DNA of 64,000 bases from a virus. Its lineage: Duplodnaviria; Heunggongvirae; Uroviricota; Caudoviricetes. A program made the translations under genes and the position numbers. The stretch spans positions 64,001-128,000 of the IMG/VR virus record IMGVR_UViG_3300036770_004943, one strand, 5' to 3'. The notes under the pieces were generated by a model that had not been told where the DNA came from, searched no databases, and saw only the letters and a program-made list of their open reading frames with translations. Positions 18,560-24,337 of the stretch are shown here, in pieces. Numbering within the stretch: position 1 is the stretch's first letter; every line of letters begins with the position of its first letter.

Positions 18560-19342
18560 TTATTTTAAAAATTTATTTAACCCGTCAATTATTTTTTGAT
18601 TTCTATTACCAGTTAAATCAACAAAGGATATTGTAGTTGGTTTTACATCTTCCATTAAATTCCATTGACAAGAATATCCATTACAACCTTGAGTAGATTC
18701 GGTAAATGTTTTTAAATCACCAGCATCTGTAGAAATCCAAGAACCCGGAGTTGATGGAGACGTTACGATATCCCAACAAATTAATTCAAAGTCATCTTGA
18801 ACTACGTTTTTACCATTTTCAACTTTAAGGGATCCAACACCACGAGATGAAATACCAACAGTCCAACCTTTTCTAATCATGTTAACCACTTTATCACCAA
18901 CCGATGAAATAATACCTAATTTGTGGTAACCTGGTGTAGTATCTAATTCCATTTCACCCATAAGAGTTTTACCTTCCCACCATGTTTTAGTAATTCTGTG
19001 GGAAACTCTGTCAGCATCAATGATAGAAGACTCGGGGTGATTTAATTCACCTAATGAAGTCCCCATTTTAATATATTCTTGATATCTAACATTTTCTCTT
19101 TCAAGAATTTCTTTTGGGTATAATCTACCATTCTTGTTTTCAATACCCCATTTTTGAAGTACTGCGTAAACAATTATTGTATCTGGTAAACTACCGTCTT
19201 TTCCTATATTTGTACCTGATTTAAATTCTCTGATTAAATCAGCATTTTTTGTACCTTTATACGTTAAATCAGGGGAAATGTATCCCGCATCGTATTCTAC
19301 TAAGATACCTCTACCTGTTTCGTTAGCTTTTAAAATTTTCAT
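18560..19342 (-). CDS. prohead core protease (T4 gp21-like)
   Basis: NKNGRLYP, GELNHP, RVSH, GISSRGVGS, WDIVTSPS; late motif at 19361-19369. Confidence 0.92.
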   Translation of the reverse strand: MKILKANETGRGILVEYDAGYISPDLTYKGTKNADLIREFKSGTNIGKDGSLPDTIIVYAVLQKWGIENKNGRLYPKEILERENVRYQEYIKMGTSLGELNHPESSIIDADRVSHRITKTWWEGKTLMGEMELDTTPGYHKLGIISSVGDKVVNMIRKGWTVGISSRGVGSLKVENGKNVVQDDFELICWDIVTSPSTPGSWISTDAGDLKTFTESTQGCNGYSCQWNLMEDVKPTTISFVDLTGNRNQKIIDGLNKFLK

Positions 19343-19395
19343 TTTGTAAAAGTTTTTCTATATAAATATGCAATAAATTCATATATTTACATTAT

Positions 19396-19815
19396 ATGAA
19401 GAACCTGATTCGAAAAATAATGAAGGAGGAGATGGTAAGAAAAAAAATACACATGGATTTACCCAATTCTGTATTGAAAATGAATCGGATTTTCAAGGAA
19501 AATGGGTATGAACTATATGTCGTTGGTGGTGCTGTGAGAGATTTGTTATACGGTAATGAACCTAAAGATTTTGATTTAACTACAAACGCTAAACCCGAAG
19601 AAATCAAATCTATGTTGAATATGTATCGTACTATCGAATTAGGTGAACAGTTCGGTATTATTAATGTGATTACAGAAGATGGTCAGTATGAAATTGCCAC
19701 TTTTAGACGTGATTTATCTTTTAAAGATAAAAGTATGAGTTCTTTTTTAGTATATTTGAAAACGTTAAATAACGGTAGTTATGAACTATTTTTAGAGAAA
19801 CTAAAAATGAAATAA
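19396..19815 (+). CDS. cca: CCA-adding enzyme (class II tRNA nucleotidyltransferase), N-terminal fragment
   Basis: YVVGGAVRD, PKDFDLTT, QFG, EIATFRRD, then 34 unrelated residues and a stop. Confidence 0.85.
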   Translation: MKNLIRKIMKEEMVRKKIHMDLPNSVLKMNRIFKENGYELYVVGGAVRDLLYGNEPKDFDLTTNAKPEEIKSMLNMYRTIELGEQFGIINVITEDGQYEIATFRRDLSFKDKSMSSFLVYLKTLNNGSYELFLEKLKMK

Positions 19816-19855
19816 CTACATTCAGAAATATCATGATATTTATAAATAAAATATC

Positions 19856-20530
19856 ATGGAAAAAGGTTACATTTACAAATTAATAGATCCAACAAATAAT
19901 GAATGTAGATATATCGGTAAAACTATACAAAAACTTAAAGTTAGATTATATCGACATTTAAATGATATTGATAAAAGTATTAGCCATAAAAATAACTGGT
20001 TAATTGGTTTAAGAGATAAGGGTTTATTAAACGATGTTAAAATAGAAATTTTAGAAGAATGTGATTTATACATTTTAAACGAACGTGAGGTGTTTTGGAT
20101 TAGTGAGTTTAAAAATAACGGACATAAATTAACTAATCTAACAATCGGTGGTGATGTAGGTTCTATGGGTCATAAACATAGTGATGAGGCTAAAAGGAAA
20201 ATATCTGAGGTTTCTAAAAAAATGGATAGGTCACATATGAGGACTAAAGAATTTAGAGATAAAATTAGTAAATCACTTATTGGTAATAATAGACATAAGG
20301 GATCTAAACATAGTGAAGAAACAAAGAAAAAAATATCTGAAAGTAAAAAAGGTACTGTGAGTTGGAATGCACAGTCAGTTTTACAATTAGATAAAGAAGG
20401 TAAGGTGATAAAAGAGTGGAGGAGTGCTAAATACGCTGCCGAACATCTTGGTTTAAGTCAAGGTAATATTTGGTCAGTAATAAATGGTAATAGAAATAAA
20501 TGTGGTGGTTATAAATGGAAATTAAAATGA
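19856..20530 (+). CDS. GIY-YIG homing endonuclease with NUMOD3-like repeats
   Basis: GYIYKL...RYIGKT...R...H; HSDEAKRKIS and HSEETKKKIS; C-terminal HTH; own late motif at 19836-19845. Confidence 0.88.
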   Translation: MEKGYIYKLIDPTNNECRYIGKTIQKLKVRLYRHLNDIDKSISHKNNWLIGLRDKGLLNDVKIEILEECDLYILNEREVFWISEFKNNGHKLTNLTIGGDVGSMGHKHSDEAKRKISEVSKKMDRSHMRTKEFRDKISKSLIGNNRHKGSKHSEETKKKISESKKGTVSWNAQSVLQLDKEGKVIKEWRSAKYAAEHLGLSQGNIWSVINGNRNKCGGYKWKLK

Positions 20531-20760
20531 ACGAAAATAAAACAACCTATATAAATAGAGATGGTGATTTAACTATTAATGGAACTTTTAACTTTGAGGG
20601 TTCGTTAATTGAATTACGTAATATAATAGATAAAACTATTGAAGAATATAGTGAAGATACAAAGTGTGAATTAGCCACTTTTGGTAGTTTCCCACATAGA
20701 TGGTCTTCACATATAATTATTAAACAAGATAAAAATGGAAAACTGGGAACAAATAGCTAA
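20515..20760 (+). CDS. hypothetical protein inside the cca-splitting insertion
   Basis: ORF overlaps both the endonuclease stop and the cca C-fragment start. Confidence 0.55.
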   Translation: MEIKMNENKTTYINRDGDLTINGTFNFEGSLIELRNIIDKTIEEYSEDTKCELATFGSFPHRWSSHIIIKQDKNGKLGTNS

Positions 20761-22015
20761 AGAATTACTACCTAAAGAGTATAGTGAATTCATGAAATTT
20801 ACTGGTTCAGGTAGAAGACCTGACTCTGTAGAATTCACCACAATCGACCAAGACGTTAAGCGTCGTGATTTAACCATTAACGCTCTTTTCTATGACATTG
20901 ATAAAGGTGAAGTGGTTGATTTAGTTGGTGGTATTGGTGATATTGAAAGTAATGTAGTTAGAACCGTTGGTTCCGCTTCGGAACGTTTTGATGAGGATAA
21001 ATTACGTGTACTTAGAGCACTTAGATTCGCAGCCCGTGTTAATTCTAACGTAGATAAAGACATTGAATCTGCGATAAAAAGGGATAAAACACCAATTAGT
21101 GGGAATGGTTTACCTGTTTCACAAGAACGTATTAGAGATGAGTTTCTTAAAGGTATTAAACAGGCCAAATCCGTTGGTTATTTTACCCAATTAATAACCA
21201 AATATAATCTTTGGGATTGGATATTTGGTCGACTTGTAGTTACAACCGAACCCTTAATTGAGGTTAAAAACCCAATCGTACTTATAGCGTCTTTACTTAG
21301 AAGTAATGAACCTACTTTGATTGAAAAGACCCTAACTAATCAATTTAAATATACTGTTGAAGAAGTAAGGGAAATTGTTTTTTTAATTAAGTTTTTACTC
21401 CTCGGAGAAGATGTTTATAAATTACGTGAGAGGTTTGATGTCATTAGAATGGACACTGAAACATTAAAAACTTTCGGTAGTTTAATGGGTGTCCCTAATA
21501 AAATTATAAATACTTTTCTAAAATATCGTATAACAACTTCAGGTGAGGATTTAATGAAACAAGGTTTTAAAGGTCGTGAAATTGGTCAAGAAAAAGAAAG
21601 AATAGAAAAAGAAAAATTTAAAAAACTTATGAAAGAGTCCACAAAGAGAGTTTCTTATTCAGGTGTAATACTAAATGAGAAATCAAGAGAAATGTTAAAA
21701 AATTATATTAAATTCCCTAAAGACTGGGAGTTTATTGGACATCACATGACAATTAACATGGGACCAATAACAGAAGAATATAAACCACTTATAGGCCAAT
21801 CAGTAGATTTGTTAATTACCCATGTTGGGTCGACAGATAAAGTTGTTGCTGTTAAAGTTGAAACTGAAATTAAAACTAAAAATAAAACACCACACATTAC
21901 TATAGCTGTAGATAGACGTAATGGTGGTAAACCAGTAATGTCTAATGAAATAACTGATTGGGCTCTTATTTACCCATTTGAGGTTGAAGGAAAAATTGAA
22001 GAAATTTCTTTTTAA
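20735..22015 (+). CDS. cca: CCA-adding enzyme C-terminal fragment fused to a 2H phosphoesterase
   Basis: GRRPD..DVKRRDLTINAL, FDEDKLRVLRALRF, SQERIRDEF; C-terminal HHMT and PHIT (two HxT motifs) after 21638. Confidence 0.85.
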   Translation: MENWEQIAKELLPKEYSEFMKFTGSGRRPDSVEFTTIDQDVKRRDLTINALFYDIDKGEVVDLVGGIGDIESNVVRTVGSASERFDEDKLRVLRALRFAARVNSNVDKDIESAIKRDKTPISGNGLPVSQERIRDEFLKGIKQAKSVGYFTQLITKYNLWDWIFGRLVVTTEPLIEVKNPIVLIASLLRSNEPTLIEKTLTNQFKYTVEEVREIVFLIKFLLLGEDVYKLRERFDVIRMDTETLKTFGSLMGVPNKIINTFLKYRITTSGEDLMKQGFKGREIGQEKERIEKEKFKKLMKESTKRVSYSGVILNEKSREMLKNYIKFPKDWEFIGHHMTINMGPITEEYKPLIGQSVDLLITHVGSTDKVVAVKVETEIKTKNKTPHITIAVDRRNGGKPVMSNEITDWALIYPFEVEGKIEEISF

Positions 22016-22041
22016 TTTTTTGCCTAAGTTAAAAATATTTC

Positions 22042-22049
22042 TATCTTTG
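22042..22049 (+). promoter_or_regulatory. Bacteroidota -33/-7 promoter
   Basis: TTTG (22019-22022), 19-nt spacer, TATCTTTG. Confidence 0.75.
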
Positions 22050-22086
22050 TATTGTTAATTAATCAATCACCTAAAACGATAAAATT

Positions 22087-22725
22087 ATGGCAACAAATCT
22101 TTTTAACAAAGCAAAGGCTAAATCAACCGATACAAAAACCCCAAAGTCGAAAGACAAATCACACGTAATACCAAAATTTGATTCAGCCGTTGAAATGGCA
22201 GAATTTCACGCCAAACTTGTAAAATTAGCAACCCTTAAAGAACAGATTGACAAACTTGAGGCTGAGATTAAAGACGCGGATAGTTATGTTCGTGACTTAG
22301 GTATGACCGAGTTTTCAAACTTGGTAGAACGTACAGGTAAACGTGAATCTTCATTCATTATGGCTTCTGAACAAGGTGCGTCTGTTATGGTTGTTGTTCA
22401 AGACAAATATAAATCCATCAATGAAGAAAGAGCTAATTACCTTAAAGAAACTTACGGTGAAGATATCGTTGATGAAGCAACAGAGTTCAAGTTTAATAAC
22501 GAAGTTCTTGAACGTAACCAAGAGGTTATATCCGAGTTAATTGAAAAATGTGATAAAATCTCTAACGACGATAAAGAAAACCTAATCGTTGGTATCACTA
22601 AATACTCGGTTAAAAAAGGGTTGATTGACAGTATATATAAAGTTTCTAAAGATAAGGGTATTAGTTTAACAACCTTGTTAGCAGAAGTGGAACCACAACT
22701 CCAACTTAAGTCCCCAAAGGCTTAA
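22087..22725 (+). CDS. early hypothetical protein
   Basis: Host-type promoter upstream, terminator downstream. Confidence 0.7.
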   Translation: MATNLFNKAKAKSTDTKTPKSKDKSHVIPKFDSAVEMAEFHAKLVKLATLKEQIDKLEAEIKDADSYVRDLGMTEFSNLVERTGKRESSFIMASEQGASVMVVVQDKYKSINEERANYLKETYGEDIVDEATEFKFNNEVLERNQEVISELIEKCDKISNDDKENLIVGITKYSVKKGLIDSIYKVSKDKGISLTTLLAEVEPQLQLKSPKA

Positions 22726-22730
22726 AAATT

Positions 22731-22757
22731 AAAAACCCCTCATAAGAGGGGTTTTTT
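22731..22757. terminator. bidirectional intrinsic terminator
   Basis: aaaaacccct-cataag-aggggttttt between convergent genes. Confidence 0.8.
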
Positions 22758-22758
22758 G

Positions 22759-23190
22759 TTATCCTTTTCTTCTAAAAAATTTAAAATCTTCATCTTTTTC
22801 AAAAACATCTGTTATTATTTTTTCAGATATTTTATTTAAAGTTGGTAATAGTTTATCGGAATTAACTGGTATTGGATTTTTTTGAAACAATGTCATTTCT
22901 ACTGACATGTAACTTCTTTTTTCATACGAAATACCTGAAGATGCCATGTTAAAATCAACAATTACTTTTGGTAGAAACTGTTCGGTGTCTAACATTTCAA
23001 ATAGTTTTCTTTTAACTCTTTTAGATTTTTGTTTAATTAACGAATCGAAATCCTCTTCGTCTTTATTCTTTGGTTTACCCCAAGCTGATATTTGTATGTA
23101 GATTGATTCTGGGTTTCTATTATCTACAGCCCCTGAAATTACATTATATTCATAAGGTAAATTTAGTTTAATTTCTTTTCCTTTTTTCAT
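22759..23190 (-). CDS. hypothetical protein
   Basis: Clean ORF. Confidence 0.65.
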   Translation of the reverse strand: MKKGKEIKLNLPYEYNVISGAVDNRNPESIYIQISAWGKPKNKDEEDFDSLIKQKSKRVKRKLFEMLDTEQFLPKVIVDFNMASSGISYEKRSYMSVEMTLFQKNPIPVNSDKLLPTLNKISEKIITDVFEKDEDFKFFRRKG

Positions 23191-23200
23191 AAAATGAGTG

Positions 23201-24337
23201 TTACGCCACTGTTATTCCAGCTTTATCGAATACAGTCTCAATCATAACATTAGAAACTTTATAAGGGTCACAATTAGCCGCCGGTCTTCTATCCTCAAAA
23301 TAACCCCTTTCATTGGTGTAAGTTTGTACTGGGATACGTATACTAGAACCTCTATCTGAATTGCCAAAACTAAATGTTTCTATGCTTGAAGTTTCGTGTT
23401 TCCCAGTTAATCTTTTGTCATTAAATTCACCATAAACTTCAATGTGTTCTTTATGTCTTTCAGATAGTTTATTACAGGCTTCTAATATTTTTTTAAGTCC
23501 ACCTTTTTCACGCATTTCTTTAGTTGAAAAATTAACGTGACACCCACTACCATTCCAATCACCGTTCACAGGTTTAGGGTGATAAGAAATCCCTAAACCT
23601 TTTTTCTCAGCAACTCGCTCAAGTATATAACGTGAAATCCATAATTGGTCTGAACCGTTTAAGGCAGTCACAGGACCGATTTGATACTCCCATTGACCTA
23701 TCAGTACTTCCGCATTAATTCCACCGATATTTAGACCTATTTCTGCACATTTAGTTAGATGTTCCTCTACTACATCCCTACCAATAACATTAAGACCACC
23801 CACACCACAATAATAATCTCCTTGTGGTCTTGGTTTTTCCGACCCTTGATTAAAACCTAATGGTAGACCACCACCCCATTTAAAATGATTTGTTTTTTCC
23901 GGTGCATGAGTAATTACATATTCTTGCTCCCACCCAAACCAAGGAACCTCTGAAAGGTTTGCATCGTATTCTTTAAATTTAAGTTCGGTTAATAATTCTC
24001 TTAAATTACCCCTTGTATTTGATTTGTGGGGTGTTTTACCATCGGGATTAAAAACTTCACAGAGAACTAATTTATGACCTTTACCTCTAAATGGGTCGTC
24101 AACTACATAGACAGGTTTTAAAACACAATCGGTACCGTCAAAACCGTATTCTGAACCACCAGCTTGTTTTGTTGAACTGCCATCAAAACTCCAAAGTGGA
24201 TATGATTCAGGATATCCTTGTTTTCCGTTACCATCTCGTTCTAAAATTTCAGTATTGTCAACAACTTTTGTTTTACTTCTTAGATTTTGGGGATTGTTAC
24301 CGTCCAACCAAATATACTCTAAAAAAACTTTACTCAT
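23201..24337 (-). CDS. glnII: glutamine synthetase type II
   Basis: WSFDGSST, QGDYYCGVG, INAEV..GQWEYQIGP, HPKP..GDWNGSGCHVNFST, RGSSIRIP, YFEDRRPAANCDPY. Confidence 0.92.
   Translation of the reverse strand: MSKVFLEYIWLDGNNPQNLRSKTKVVDNTEILERDGNGKQGYPESYPLWSFDGSSTKQAGGSEYGFDGTDCVLKPVYVVDDPFRGKGHKLVLCEVFNPDGKTPHKSNTRGNLRELLTELKFKEYDANLSEVPWFGWEQEYVITHAPEKTNHFKWGGGLPLGFNQGSEKPRPQGDYYCGVGGLNVIGRDVVEEHLTKCAEIGLNIGGINAEVLIGQWEYQIGPVTALNGSDQLWISRYILERVAEKKGLGISYHPKPVNGDWNGSGCHVNFSTKEMREKGGLKKILEACNKLSERHKEHIEVYGEFNDKRLTGKHETSSIETFSFGNSDRGSSIRIPVQTYTNERGYFEDRRPAANCDPYKVSNVMIETVFDKAGITVA

Follow-up and report, generated by a model that had tools for sequence, protein, structure and literature searches.

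A mobile GIY-YIG endonuclease cassette splits a phage CCA-adding enzyme gene at its flexible loop and carries candidate compensating peptides

Introduction

How could a phage keep a working CCA-adding enzyme when the gene for it is cut in two, inside the catalytic head domain, by about 1.09 kb of inserted DNA? The locus that raises this question lies in the window, by which we mean the whole stretch of 64,000 nucleotides that was analysed and which comes from an uncultured T4-like jumbo phage; a search of phage GenBank records for a close relative found none. The flexible loop of class II enzymes, at which the gene is cut, switches the pocket from CTP to ATP, and its absence marks CC-adding enzymes. 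A-addition depends on this loop (PMC2910056), and with the loop opened by the cut an altered specificity of the split enzyme is conceivable. An earlier note on this DNA had proposed a splicing-free split by an endonuclease cassette, followed by reassembly of the two halves in trans. Here we describe the anatomy of the locus, the movement and distribution of the cassette and the conservation of the peptides that it adds to both halves, and weigh these data against other ways of explaining the interruption.

Anatomy of the split locus

All features lie on the plus strand. Fragment 1 (19396-19815, 139 aa) holds the N-terminal part of the CCA-adding enzyme and fragment 2 (20735-22015, 426 aa) the C-terminal part, and between them lie a free-standing GIY-YIG homing endonuclease gene (19856..20530, 224 aa) and an ORF of 81 aa (ORF81, 20515..20760) that overlaps the last part of the endonuclease gene as well as the beginning of fragment 2. 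The ORF coordinates given in the earlier note were all recovered, as were the GIY-YIG gene, the 81-aa ORF and the 22-aa head that it placed in the interval, while the tail of fragment 1, given there as 34 aa, counts 33 residues after the last native D.

Positions 1-80 of the Pfam family PolyA_pol (PF01743) are found in fragment 1 (69.9 bits) and positions 74-126 in fragment 2 (54.5 bits), with a cut-off of 23; the head domain of a class II tRNA nucleotidyltransferase is present, but spread over two ORFs. The native core of fragment 1 (19396..19713) carries motif A (GGAVRD...DFDL), with the catalytic carboxylates, and the BxA motif (R-R-D), and aligns to uninterrupted homologues as far as FR[KR]D, the D codon at 19711-19713 being its last. 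The native core of fragment 2 (20801..22015) aligns to the same homologues from G-RRP onward and comprises the remainder of the flexible loop (TGSGRRPDSVEF), motif B (RRDLTINA), the downstream motifs and the body domain. Motif A is confined to fragment 1 and motifs B to E to fragment 2, so that neither half can be catalytic by itself. At its C-terminal end (about 21629-22015), fragment 2 carries a 2H phosphoesterase-like domain, with a weak match to PF08302 and conserved HxT motifs.

Homologues without the interruption, which are 491-510 aa long, share about 80% identity and lie in the same gene neighbourhood, read ...EIATFRKD-IGKG-RRPDSVEF across the site, from which it follows that homology ends after the D codon and restarts at 20801. 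The flexible loop segment of the uninterrupted alleles (IGKGRRPDSVEFT...) is 2 residues shorter than that of 1MIV, with which the uninterrupted homologue P0013 aligns at 2.6e-35. The insertion thus lies exactly between 19713 and 20801, just past the BxA motif, and the chain of the split allele is cut at the N-terminal end of the flexible loop, between that motif (FRRD) and the loop itself. In addition, a DNA contig from another metagenome joins 19703 to 20809 through 18 nt that restore T-F-R-K-D-I-G-K-G. The break points of the earlier note (similarity stopping at 19711-19713 and resuming at 20801) agree with the syntenic uninterrupted alleles and with this bridging contig, and its placement of the site in the class II flexible loop stands, the split being at the start of the loop after the BxA motif; the comparison with uninterrupted alleles that it had proposed finds a single gene there, with the insert absent.

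In the split allele, the insert begins with a C-terminal tail for fragment 1 (19714..19815, 33 codons plus TAA) and ends with an N-terminal head for fragment 2 (20735..20800, 22 codons with an ATG of their own).

Distribution and mobility of the cassette

The split is not a single case, and this is what is new here: about 31 of the best 120 protein clusters are interrupted at the same codon and bear the same tail and head motifs, and among them are enzymes that are only about 50% identical and stand in other genomic and phage contexts. The split form is abundant, with P0033 found in 58 blocks of the collection, and at least six diverged types of cassette retain the tail and head motifs. The earlier note had not recognised tail and head as parts of the mobile cassette that are found again throughout a large family.

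Over 19699-20823 the window differs from locus L030 by 3 mismatches in 1125 nt (99.7% identity), and the flanks of the two are about 78% identical (flanking exon DNA about 75-80%), the nearest mismatches being at 19698 upstream and 20824 downstream. The unit moved between these alleles is therefore 19699..20823, in which the insert (19714-20800) is accompanied by co-converted exon sequence, 15 nt before it and 23 nt after it, and tail and head fall inside the transferred block. Between L009 and L019, the tail, the C-terminal half of the endonuclease and the head are 83-100% identical and the exons 45-72%; L004 and L009 have nearly identical second exons (dS 0.09) and different tails and heads. 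Presence/absence polymorphism at one site and short co-conversion tracts, as expected of homing endonuclease mobility, are both observed, and the cassette moves as a unit, tail and head included.

The endonuclease itself matches PF01541 (31.8 bits, cut-off 22.6), PF07460 (46 bits) and PF22083 (42.6 bits) in Pfam as well as the homing endonucleases of PHROG 314 (8.9e-26). Its GIY-YIG domain is followed by a NUMOD/HTH region, the C-terminal half consisting of NUMOD3 and an I-HmuI-like NUMOD DNA-binding region, which is the architecture of a homing endonuclease, and homologues occupy the same place in other split alleles. In two RNA-labelled runs, matches were confined to short stretches of the conserved NUMOD part (20287-20486 and similar), loose at either end, which most likely derive from other endonuclease genes; neither junction of the insert was covered.

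The split also persists when the endonuclease is lost. Two independent deletions, one in the L003 type (16 of the 24 contigs read) and one in L022, removed the endonuclease and kept tail, stop, start and head, and the tail-to-head content ranges from about 80 nt to about 920 nt between cassettes.

Tail and head are conserved as protein

The tail follows the motif F..YLK.LNNGS[YF]E.F, with a shared core of YLK-x-LNNGSYE, and has nine invariant and two nearly invariant positions among 15 split fragment-1 sequences; the head follows M..W..IA......E[FY], with M1, W4, A8 and E15 invariant among 26 split fragment-2 sequences. Both were missing from 82 of the 82 uninterrupted sequences scanned. In IMG/VR the tail occurs only on fragment 1 of CCA-adding enzymes, and motif searches of that collection for tail or head on other host genes returned only CCA genes, plus two chance partial matches. 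AlphaFold2 predicts a helix-turn-helix for the tail (helices at 114-125 and 128-138, pLDDT about 55) and two short helices for the head (4-11 and 13-21, pLDDT 64-75), in line, at modest confidence, with the amphipathic-helical extensions suggested by the earlier note.

Across split alleles down to 50% identity, the enzyme cores have dN/dS ratios of 0.06-0.32. The heads lie at 0.16-0.5 and the tails at 0.2-0.5 in all cassette pairs but one (L004 vs L016, 0.98), and between the window and L004 both tail and head stand at 0.16-0.2, as low as the cores. By these ratios, the tail, the head and both halves of the enzyme are under purifying selection.

We therefore favour, with a probability of roughly three in four, a reading in which a free-standing GIY-YIG cassette has split the CCA gene, the two fragments are translated separately and reassemble without covalent linkage, and tail and head are selected as compensating peptides. 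The main alternative, which we regard as unlikely, is that the halves come together through the native interface of the head domain only, and that tail and head are neutral, kept because they travel with the cassette or overlap regulatory sequence. The 3' end of the tail does overlap a conserved relic of the insertion site (described below), and the nucleotide conservation of the tail could in part stem from hitch-hiking with the cassette or from overlap with regulatory DNA, with relic and hairpin both located at the 3' end of the tail. In the L003 type, the last 6 tail residues are swapped for 3 others and the allele has apparently not been lost, suggesting that the last part of the tail is dispensable. 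Likewise, charge complementarity of the kind seen in phage Aeh1 holds in the window (tail +3, head -2) and fails family-wide. However, in the comparison of the window with L004 both peptides have dN/dS ratios as low as those of the cores, the invariant positions are aromatic or hydrophobic with helix-like spacing, and the motifs survive in diverged cassettes of at least six types and also where the endonuclease has been lost. A complex prediction for fragment 1 with the first 30 residues of fragment 2, run without controls, scored 0.12 and 0.11 against a mark of 0.32 and is given no weight on either side.

Decay and splicing are unlikely to account for the locus

That the gene is a pseudogene, wrecked by the endonuclease insertion and leaving non-functional fragments, might be suspected because the insertion breaks the catalytic head domain at a loop on which A-addition depends, but we consider it very improbable, as both halves remain open with dN/dS ratios of 0.06-0.32 down to 50% identity, the split form is abundant, and the split has outlived the endonuclease in two lineages.

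Slightly less probable still is an intron, either a self-splicing one of group I, one of whose loops would house the endonuclease ORF, or one of group II, that would rejoin the mRNA and yield one polypeptide. The layout is indeed like that of the T4 td intron, with about 140 nt followed by an ORF and a 3' segment, an in-frame join is conceivable (GAU before the insert, AUG at its end and AAA after it), and the 5' part of the insert is strongly structured, the fold of 19700-19870 having z = -4.26 with none of 200 shuffles as stable. This structure is, however, accounted for by a hairpin over the endonuclease start codon (19831..19859, with the ATG at 19856-19858 in its 3' arm), which has a 9-pair consensus stem in 7 cassettes, with 2 compensatory pairs, and the insert that lacks the endonuclease folds no better than its shuffles (z +0.66). 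A search of the window region and four related loci for group I or group II introns in Rfam gave no match at E<=10, only terminator-like matches near 22700, and we found neither an RF00028 core nor an intron-like fold in the ORF-less insert. The border bases that a group I intron should have, a U ahead of the 5' junction and a terminal G, are not conserved: the base before the insert is C in L009 and L019, and the last base of the insert is T or A. Moreover, the content between tail and head varies more than tenfold in length, L004 has only 69 nt from the endonuclease stop to exon 2, and the segments next to the exons evolve as protein, with stop and start conserved.

The least credible alternative, to which we attach almost no weight, is that tail and head are (degenerate) split-intein halves ligating the fragments by protein trans-splicing, an idea that can draw on metagenomic "fractured genes" with a homing endonuclease between split-intein halves (PMC2677866) and on the degenerate intein considered by Crona et al. 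as the origin of the Aeh1 tails (PMC3045599), but here the extensions amount together to only 55 residues, no Hint or intein domain was matched by Pfam in the proteins of the locus, the tail begins with L, Q, K, E or G instead of a nucleophilic Cys or Ser, no His-Asn precedes the junction and the residue after the head varies (T, L, G...). The earlier claims that the locus has no group I intron core and no intein motifs are thus borne out by these searches, and a split without splicing is favoured by purifying selection, by persistence after endonuclease loss and by the protein-level conservation of tail and head.

A model for the split enzyme

According to the favoured reading of a split enzyme with compensating peptides, a mobile cassette of about 1.09 kb would home into uninterrupted alleles. 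It would give the upstream half its 33-aa helix-turn-helix tail and a stop codon, contribute the endonuclease gene, with its start codon hidden in the hairpin, and sometimes a small ORF, and give the downstream half a start codon and a 22-aa two-helix head. With both RNA splicing and protein splicing absent, the two fragments would be translated separately off one transcript and would reassemble non-covalently into an active enzyme. Tail and head probably let the two pieces work together without splicing; we infer that they would compensate for the broken chain, probably packed as a small helical clasp at the open loop, where their helices may "zip" the halves together as the earlier note had suggested, and such compensation would leave the insertion nearly harmless to the phage. 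The split pair may well keep full CCA, and not merely CC, activity.

More tentatively, and with odds that we put somewhat below even, introns and inteins might have a third counterpart in this cassette, by which a homing endonuclease can reside inside an essential coding sequence: a peptide clasp of two parts, portable and perhaps folded as a four-helix mini-domain, would keep the cut protein together, home between alleles and be left as a permanent scar after the endonuclease decays. Since the cut lies at the lever loop for A-addition, such a clasp might also tune CC versus CCA synthesis.

Comparison with known systems

In GIY-YIG domain, NUMOD-type linker and helix-turn-helix, the endonuclease resembles I-TevI of the T4 td group I intron, which is likewise inserted in a conserved codon stretch of an enzyme gene and has its start sequestered in a hairpin; there, however, a self-splicing intron restores the mRNA, whereas here no ribozyme is found and repair would take place at the level of the protein.

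The closest precedent is nrdA-a/mobE/nrdA-b of phage Aeh1 (Friedrich et al. 2007; Crona et al. 2010, PMC3045599), in which an enzyme gene of a T4-like phage was split in its catalytic core by a free-standing homing endonuclease gene. As in Aeh1, one gene of the relatives has become two, which are separated by an endonuclease ORF and free of introns and inteins, the insertion brought new tails for the C- and N-termini, the endonuclease ORF abuts or runs into the fragment downstream of it, an RNA hairpin holds down endonuclease translation, and the fragments are translated separately, the last two points being predicted from sequence in our case. The Aeh1 precedent named in the earlier note therefore holds, and it already includes a feature which that note had missed, as in NrdA-a and NrdA-b the tails arrived with mobE and are essential for activity (PMC3045599). 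The two systems differ in that Aeh1 concerns a ribonucleotide reductase and an HNH nuclease, and the present one a CCA-adding enzyme, a monomeric polymerase, and a GIY-YIG nuclease; in that Aeh1 is one phage with a presumed one-off transposition, whereas here many diverged alleles share the split and its homologous tails, and the cassette, tails included, is seen moving between alleles; and in that tail function is proven for Aeh1 and here suggested by conservation.

In T4 topoisomerase genes 39/60, with mobA and the 50-nt bypass element (PMC3045599; bioRxiv 10.1101/2022.08.31.505936), a homing cassette also fragments an enzyme gene, extra sequence of the cassette neutralises the damage and the fragments bear tail-like extensions, although gene 60 relies on ribosomal bypassing of a coding gap, which is neither needed nor seen here. 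The "fractured genes" from environmental phage-like DNA (Dassa et al. 2009, PMC2677866) likewise consist of a gene in two parts with a homing endonuclease ORF between them and short extensions on both new termini, but there the protein is ligated by the extensions, which can be recognised as the halves of a split intein. Finally, S. pombe and some bacteria have CC-adding and A-adding enzymes that collaborate ("split CCA activity"; PMC7014341; PMC2910056). These belong to the same enzyme family, with the same flexible loop as the key to A-addition; unlike our pair, which is one chain physically cut at that loop, they are two complete paralogous enzymes with partial activities.

The present locus would thus be a second, independent system besides Aeh1, and one with natural replication: as dozens of diverged split alleles, uninterrupted sisters, several cassette types and endonuclease-less descendants are at hand, the idea is open to both comparison and bench test. 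Because a natural class II CCA-adding enzyme has here its chain open at the flexible loop, it also offers a ready-made tool for studying the mechanism of the loop, and for split-protein reassembly the two peptides, of 33 aa and 22 aa, could make a small natural pair. For annotation, the two ORFs should be treated as one two-subunit enzyme and not as a truncated gene.

Relic, promoter box and ORF81

An out-of-frame relic of the E-I-(A/T)-T-F-R codons, which stand on the exon-1 side of the insertion site, lies at 19809..19826 and is found at the same position in 9 cassettes, where it varies chiefly at wobble positions of its own frame. Its ATAA or ATAG gives fragment 1 its stop codon. I-TevI binds an operator resembling its homing site, and this likeness suggests a role for the relic, which may be an old target half-site or an operator of the endonuclease. 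When the final 150 nt of exon 1 were aligned locally with the insert, this 18-nt relic was all that matched, with no longer duplication, and an origin of the tail as a duplicate of exon 1 was rejected; as an unproven hint, NGSYE of the tail resembles the DGQYE that precedes EIATFR.

In the loop of the hairpin, TATAAATA (19841-19848) is possibly a T4-type late promoter box; the window contains 22 matches to it where 14.7 would be expected, a count attained by 4 of 100 shuffles is 22 or more, and other cassettes do not conserve the box. A scan of 19200-22200 for sigma-70 promoters and terminators gave numbers at or below chance. Downstream, near 22700, a bidirectional terminator hairpin produced the Rfam matches (rimP, Phe leader and similar) without belonging to those families.

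ORF81 contains a second possible relic (E-L-A-T-F-G) that has a 9-mer in common with exon 1, a match not judged to be beyond chance. The ORF81 product had no match in Pfam or PHROG; its family comprises 12 clusters and is missing from L004-type cassettes, as fits an optional passenger of the cassette, and ORF81 is 78% identical to ORF75 in the unrelated locus L019.

Position of the cut

As far as computation reaches, comparison with related loci supports a reading in which the interrupted CCA-adding enzyme gene of the window would yield two polypeptides without splicing. Fragment 1 (19396-19815, + strand, 139 aa) matches positions 1-80 of the PolyA_pol head domain (Pfam PF01743) and fragment 2 (20735-22015, + strand, 426 aa) positions 74-126, each far above the Pfam cut-off. 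Between them, on the same strand, lie a GIY-YIG endonuclease ORF (19856-20530, 224 aa), which also carries NUMOD3 and I-HmuI-like NUMOD DNA-binding modules, and ORF81 (20515-20760, 81 aa), which has no family. The split gene, part of a 130-kb IMG/VR virus record with a G+C content of about 30%, is flanked by a T4-type prohead protease gene and a glutamine-synthetase-like gene (23201-24337, - strand); the latter has Gln-synt_N/C domains in relatives and adjoins the CCA gene in all relatives of the phage group.

A search of 5.8 billion proteins returned many uninterrupted homologues of 491-510 aa that are about 80% identical. The three uninterrupted alleles with DNA (L012, L013 and L014) share the neighbourhood of the window. 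All have the protease upstream; downstream are the same 143-aa gene and the glutamine synthetase, together with the 212-aa gene in L012 and L013. They read ...YEIATFRKD-IGKG-RRPDSVEF... across the site. The FR-to-GRRP spacing is exactly five residues in all 82 uninterrupted sequences that could be scanned. In the window, fragment 1 diverges after ...EIATFRRD and fragment 2 realigns at TGSG-RRPDSVEF, and the insert therefore spans 19714-20800 (1087 nt). Independent support comes from a DNA contig of another metagenome, which joins 19703 to 20809 via 18 nt and restores T-F-R-K-D-I-G-K-G. On comparison with 1MIV, a solved Bacillus enzyme, the site maps directly after the basic/acidic BxA motif and ahead of motif B, at the start of the flexible loop that class II enzymes need in order to change from CTP to ATP (Hoffmeier et al. 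2010, PMC2910056). The earlier note had claimed that similarity stops at EIATFRRD, that the gap is about 1.09 kb and that it lies in this loop, and had proposed the comparison with uninterrupted alleles; the junction FRKD-IGKG-RRP of L012-L014 and the 1MIV comparison bear it out on each point. Since motif A, with the catalytic carboxylates, is found only in fragment 1 and motif B onward only in fragment 2, neither fragment alone can be an enzyme.

Alternatives to a split without splicing

If the insert were a ribozyme, that is a group I or II intron, the enzyme would be restored by splicing. Rfam gave no group I or II intron match (E<=10) for the window or the related loci L003, L004, L007 and L009, in agreement with the earlier note, which had seen no group I core and had suggested such a scan. 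In addition, shuffled versions of the endonuclease-less L003 insert fold as well as the insert itself (z +0.66), and exon 2 of L004 follows only 69 nt past the endonuclease stop. A group I intron is expected to be preceded by U and to end in G, whereas the insert is preceded by C in L009 and L019, and inserts end in T or A.

A pseudogene is argued against by both fragments being open and constrained across large divergence, and by the endonuclease-less form of L003 being the commonest arrangement (16 of the 24 contigs read that carry its fragment 2). By the Nei-Gojobori method, applied to short segments for which single values are rough and the direction is consistent, dN/dS in split alleles was 0.06-0.32 for the enzyme cores, 0.16-0.49 for the 22-aa N-terminal extension of fragment 2 (the head) and 0.19-0.52 for the 33-aa C-terminal extension of fragment 1 (the tail) in all pairs but one (L004 vs L016, 0.98). 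In the window-L004 pair, constraint on the extensions (0.20, 0.16) is at the level seen in the cores (0.14, 0.15). Every cassette retains the fragment 1 stop codon and the fragment 2 ATG. An intein is argued against, again as the earlier note had it, by the absence of a Hint domain in Pfam, by extensions of just 55 residues in total and by variable, non-nucleophilic junction residues.

A recurrent and mobile family

Judging from sequence, the two-polypeptide split is a recurrent family and not an accident. About 31 of the best 120 protein clusters for fragment 2 start with the same kind of head, 22-26 residues ahead of GRRP; 26 of these split clusters share invariant M1, W4, A8 and E15, with I7 and F16 nearly invariant. 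The tail is likewise shared by fragment-1-like proteins, with F117, L121, K122, L124, N126, G127, S128, E130 and F132 invariant (n=15). The split genes belong to two enzyme clades, mutually only about 50% identical and in quite different gene neighbourhoods, of which the first, including the window, has a C-terminal 2H-like domain and the second lacks it, its fragment 2 being about 295 aa long. The layout is tail, endonuclease, head in L004 and L016; a small ORF precedes the head in the window, L019 and L030; L009 has a truncated endonuclease without the GIY-YIG domain and an unrelated small ORF; and the endonuclease remnant amounts to the last ~25 codons in L003 and the last ~10 in L022. The distance from FRxD to the head start codon ranges from 188 to 1065 nt across cassettes. 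Outside CCA genes, an IMG/VR scan with back-translated tail and head motifs gave none except two chance partial matches.

Exon DNA of the window and L030 is only about 75-80% identical, yet there are 3 mismatches in 1125 positions over 19699-20823. The nearest mismatches outside this stretch are at 19698 (upstream) and 20824 (downstream), and thus the transferred block comprises the whole insert plus 15 nt and 23 nt of exon, a typical short co-conversion tract. Between L009 and L019, exons are 45-72% identical, tails 95-100%, endonuclease DNA-binding halves 93-97% and heads 83-100%; between L004 and L009, exon 2 is nearly the same (dS 0.09) and the tail and head types differ (dS about 0.8-1.0). 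Split and uninterrupted alleles were also found together in one sample. Taken together, these data show homing of the cassette including both peptide-coding ends, and tail and head are evidently parts of the mobile element. By run labels, the metagenomes with the sequence are from subsurface, activated sludge and lake. The comparison of metagenome contigs with the window covered one activated-sludge run and one unlabelled run.

Some relatives depart from these layouts. The uninterrupted enzyme has an additional N-terminal domain of about 130 aa in P0039 and P0044-P0048, the stop-to-stop frame holding fragment 1 runs to 527 codons in L024/L026 instead of the usual ~140 aa, and L019 (1-3979), on a 14-kb phage or bacterial contig, has a distant-clade split CCA gene beside TonB-dependent receptor, NMN transporter and NadR-like genes.

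Endonuclease, small ORF and 2H-like domain

The endonucleases of L019 (4473-5174) and the window have nearly identical DNA-binding halves and different nuclease domains, LEM-3-type GIY-YIG in L019 and I-TevI-type in the window, which suggests domain swapping inside the cassette family. L009 has no nuclease domain left. ORF81 represents a conserved small protein found between endonuclease gene and head in some cassettes (L019 5182-5409, L022 4425-4760); its 12 clusters matched no Pfam or PHROG family. At the same position, P0104 has an unrelated N-terminal stretch of about 100 aa fused in frame to the fragment 2 head. The C-terminal ~125 aa of fragment 2 (21629-22015) form a 2H-phosphoesterase-like domain. 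All close homologues conserve its two HxT motifs (HHMT, PHIT), and Pfam weakly matches it to the CPD domain of fungal tRNA ligase (E 3.8e-4). A fusion of CCA-adding enzyme and cyclic phosphodiesterase would fit tRNA 3'-end repair.

Proposed assembly of the fragments and comparison with phage Aeh1

Both extensions had been described as helical in appearance, and AlphaFold2 models agree, with tail helices 114-125 and 128-138 around an invariant NNG turn (pLDDT ~55) and head helices 4-11 and 13-21 around a frequent Pro (pLDDT 64-75). We infer that these two helix-turn-helix pieces might pack against each other, or against the head domain, next to the open loop and thereby stabilise the reassembled head domain.

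The closest system is nrdA-a/mobE/nrdA-b of phage Aeh1, in which the tails that arrived with the endonuclease are essential to activity; its authors predicted that tails of this kind could be general (PMC3045599). The parallel drawn in the earlier note holds. In both systems an endonuclease has made a splicing-free split within the catalytic core, the tails derive from inserted DNA and the endonuclease is under hairpin control. The extensions also resemble those of Aeh1 in charge, the window tail being basic (+3) and the head acidic (-2); this pattern is not family-wide, and charge therefore seems to matter less than the conserved aromatic and aliphatic positions. The window differs in enzyme and nuclease family, and its tails, unlike those of Aeh1, are conserved and recognisable and belong to a cassette that moves by homing from allele to allele and outlasts loss of the endonuclease. 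A full-text literature search found no split or interrupted phage CCA-adding enzyme, and the known 'split CCA activity' is that of two complete paralogues, not of a cut chain (PMC7014341).

Expression signals

Both fragments, the endonuclease gene and, in cassettes that have it, ORF81 would share a single transcript. Coupled translation would be possible, as fragment 2 starts 3 nt past the preceding ORF or overlaps it. A hairpin (19831-19859) holds the endonuclease start codon in its 3' arm, in a region that folds far better than shuffles (z -4.26); seven cassettes retain the stem, with two compensatory pairs. The same device limits expression of MobE and I-TevI in T-even phages; for MobE, the limitation by a hairpin is documented in PMC3045599.

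Exactly at the fragment 1 stop codon, the window holds a second, out-of-frame copy of the E-I-(A/T)-T-F-R codons (19809-19826), which is present in every cassette retaining the region (window, L004, L016, L019, L022, L023, L025, L026 and L030). Within its own reading frame the copy varies mainly at wobble positions, and fragment 1 takes its stop codon from the ATAA/ATAG of the copy. This relic may represent the exon end of the allele that was invaded first; alternatively, like the I-TevI operator, it may be a half-site bound by the endonuclease for self-repression.

Downstream, 22699-22799 gave Rfam matches to 'rimP leader' and other leaders on both strands (38 bits, below gathering). We rejected it as a rimP leader RNA; the element is a bidirectional terminator hairpin, rich in G+C, that lies between convergent genes and is kept in L003, L004, L007 and L009.
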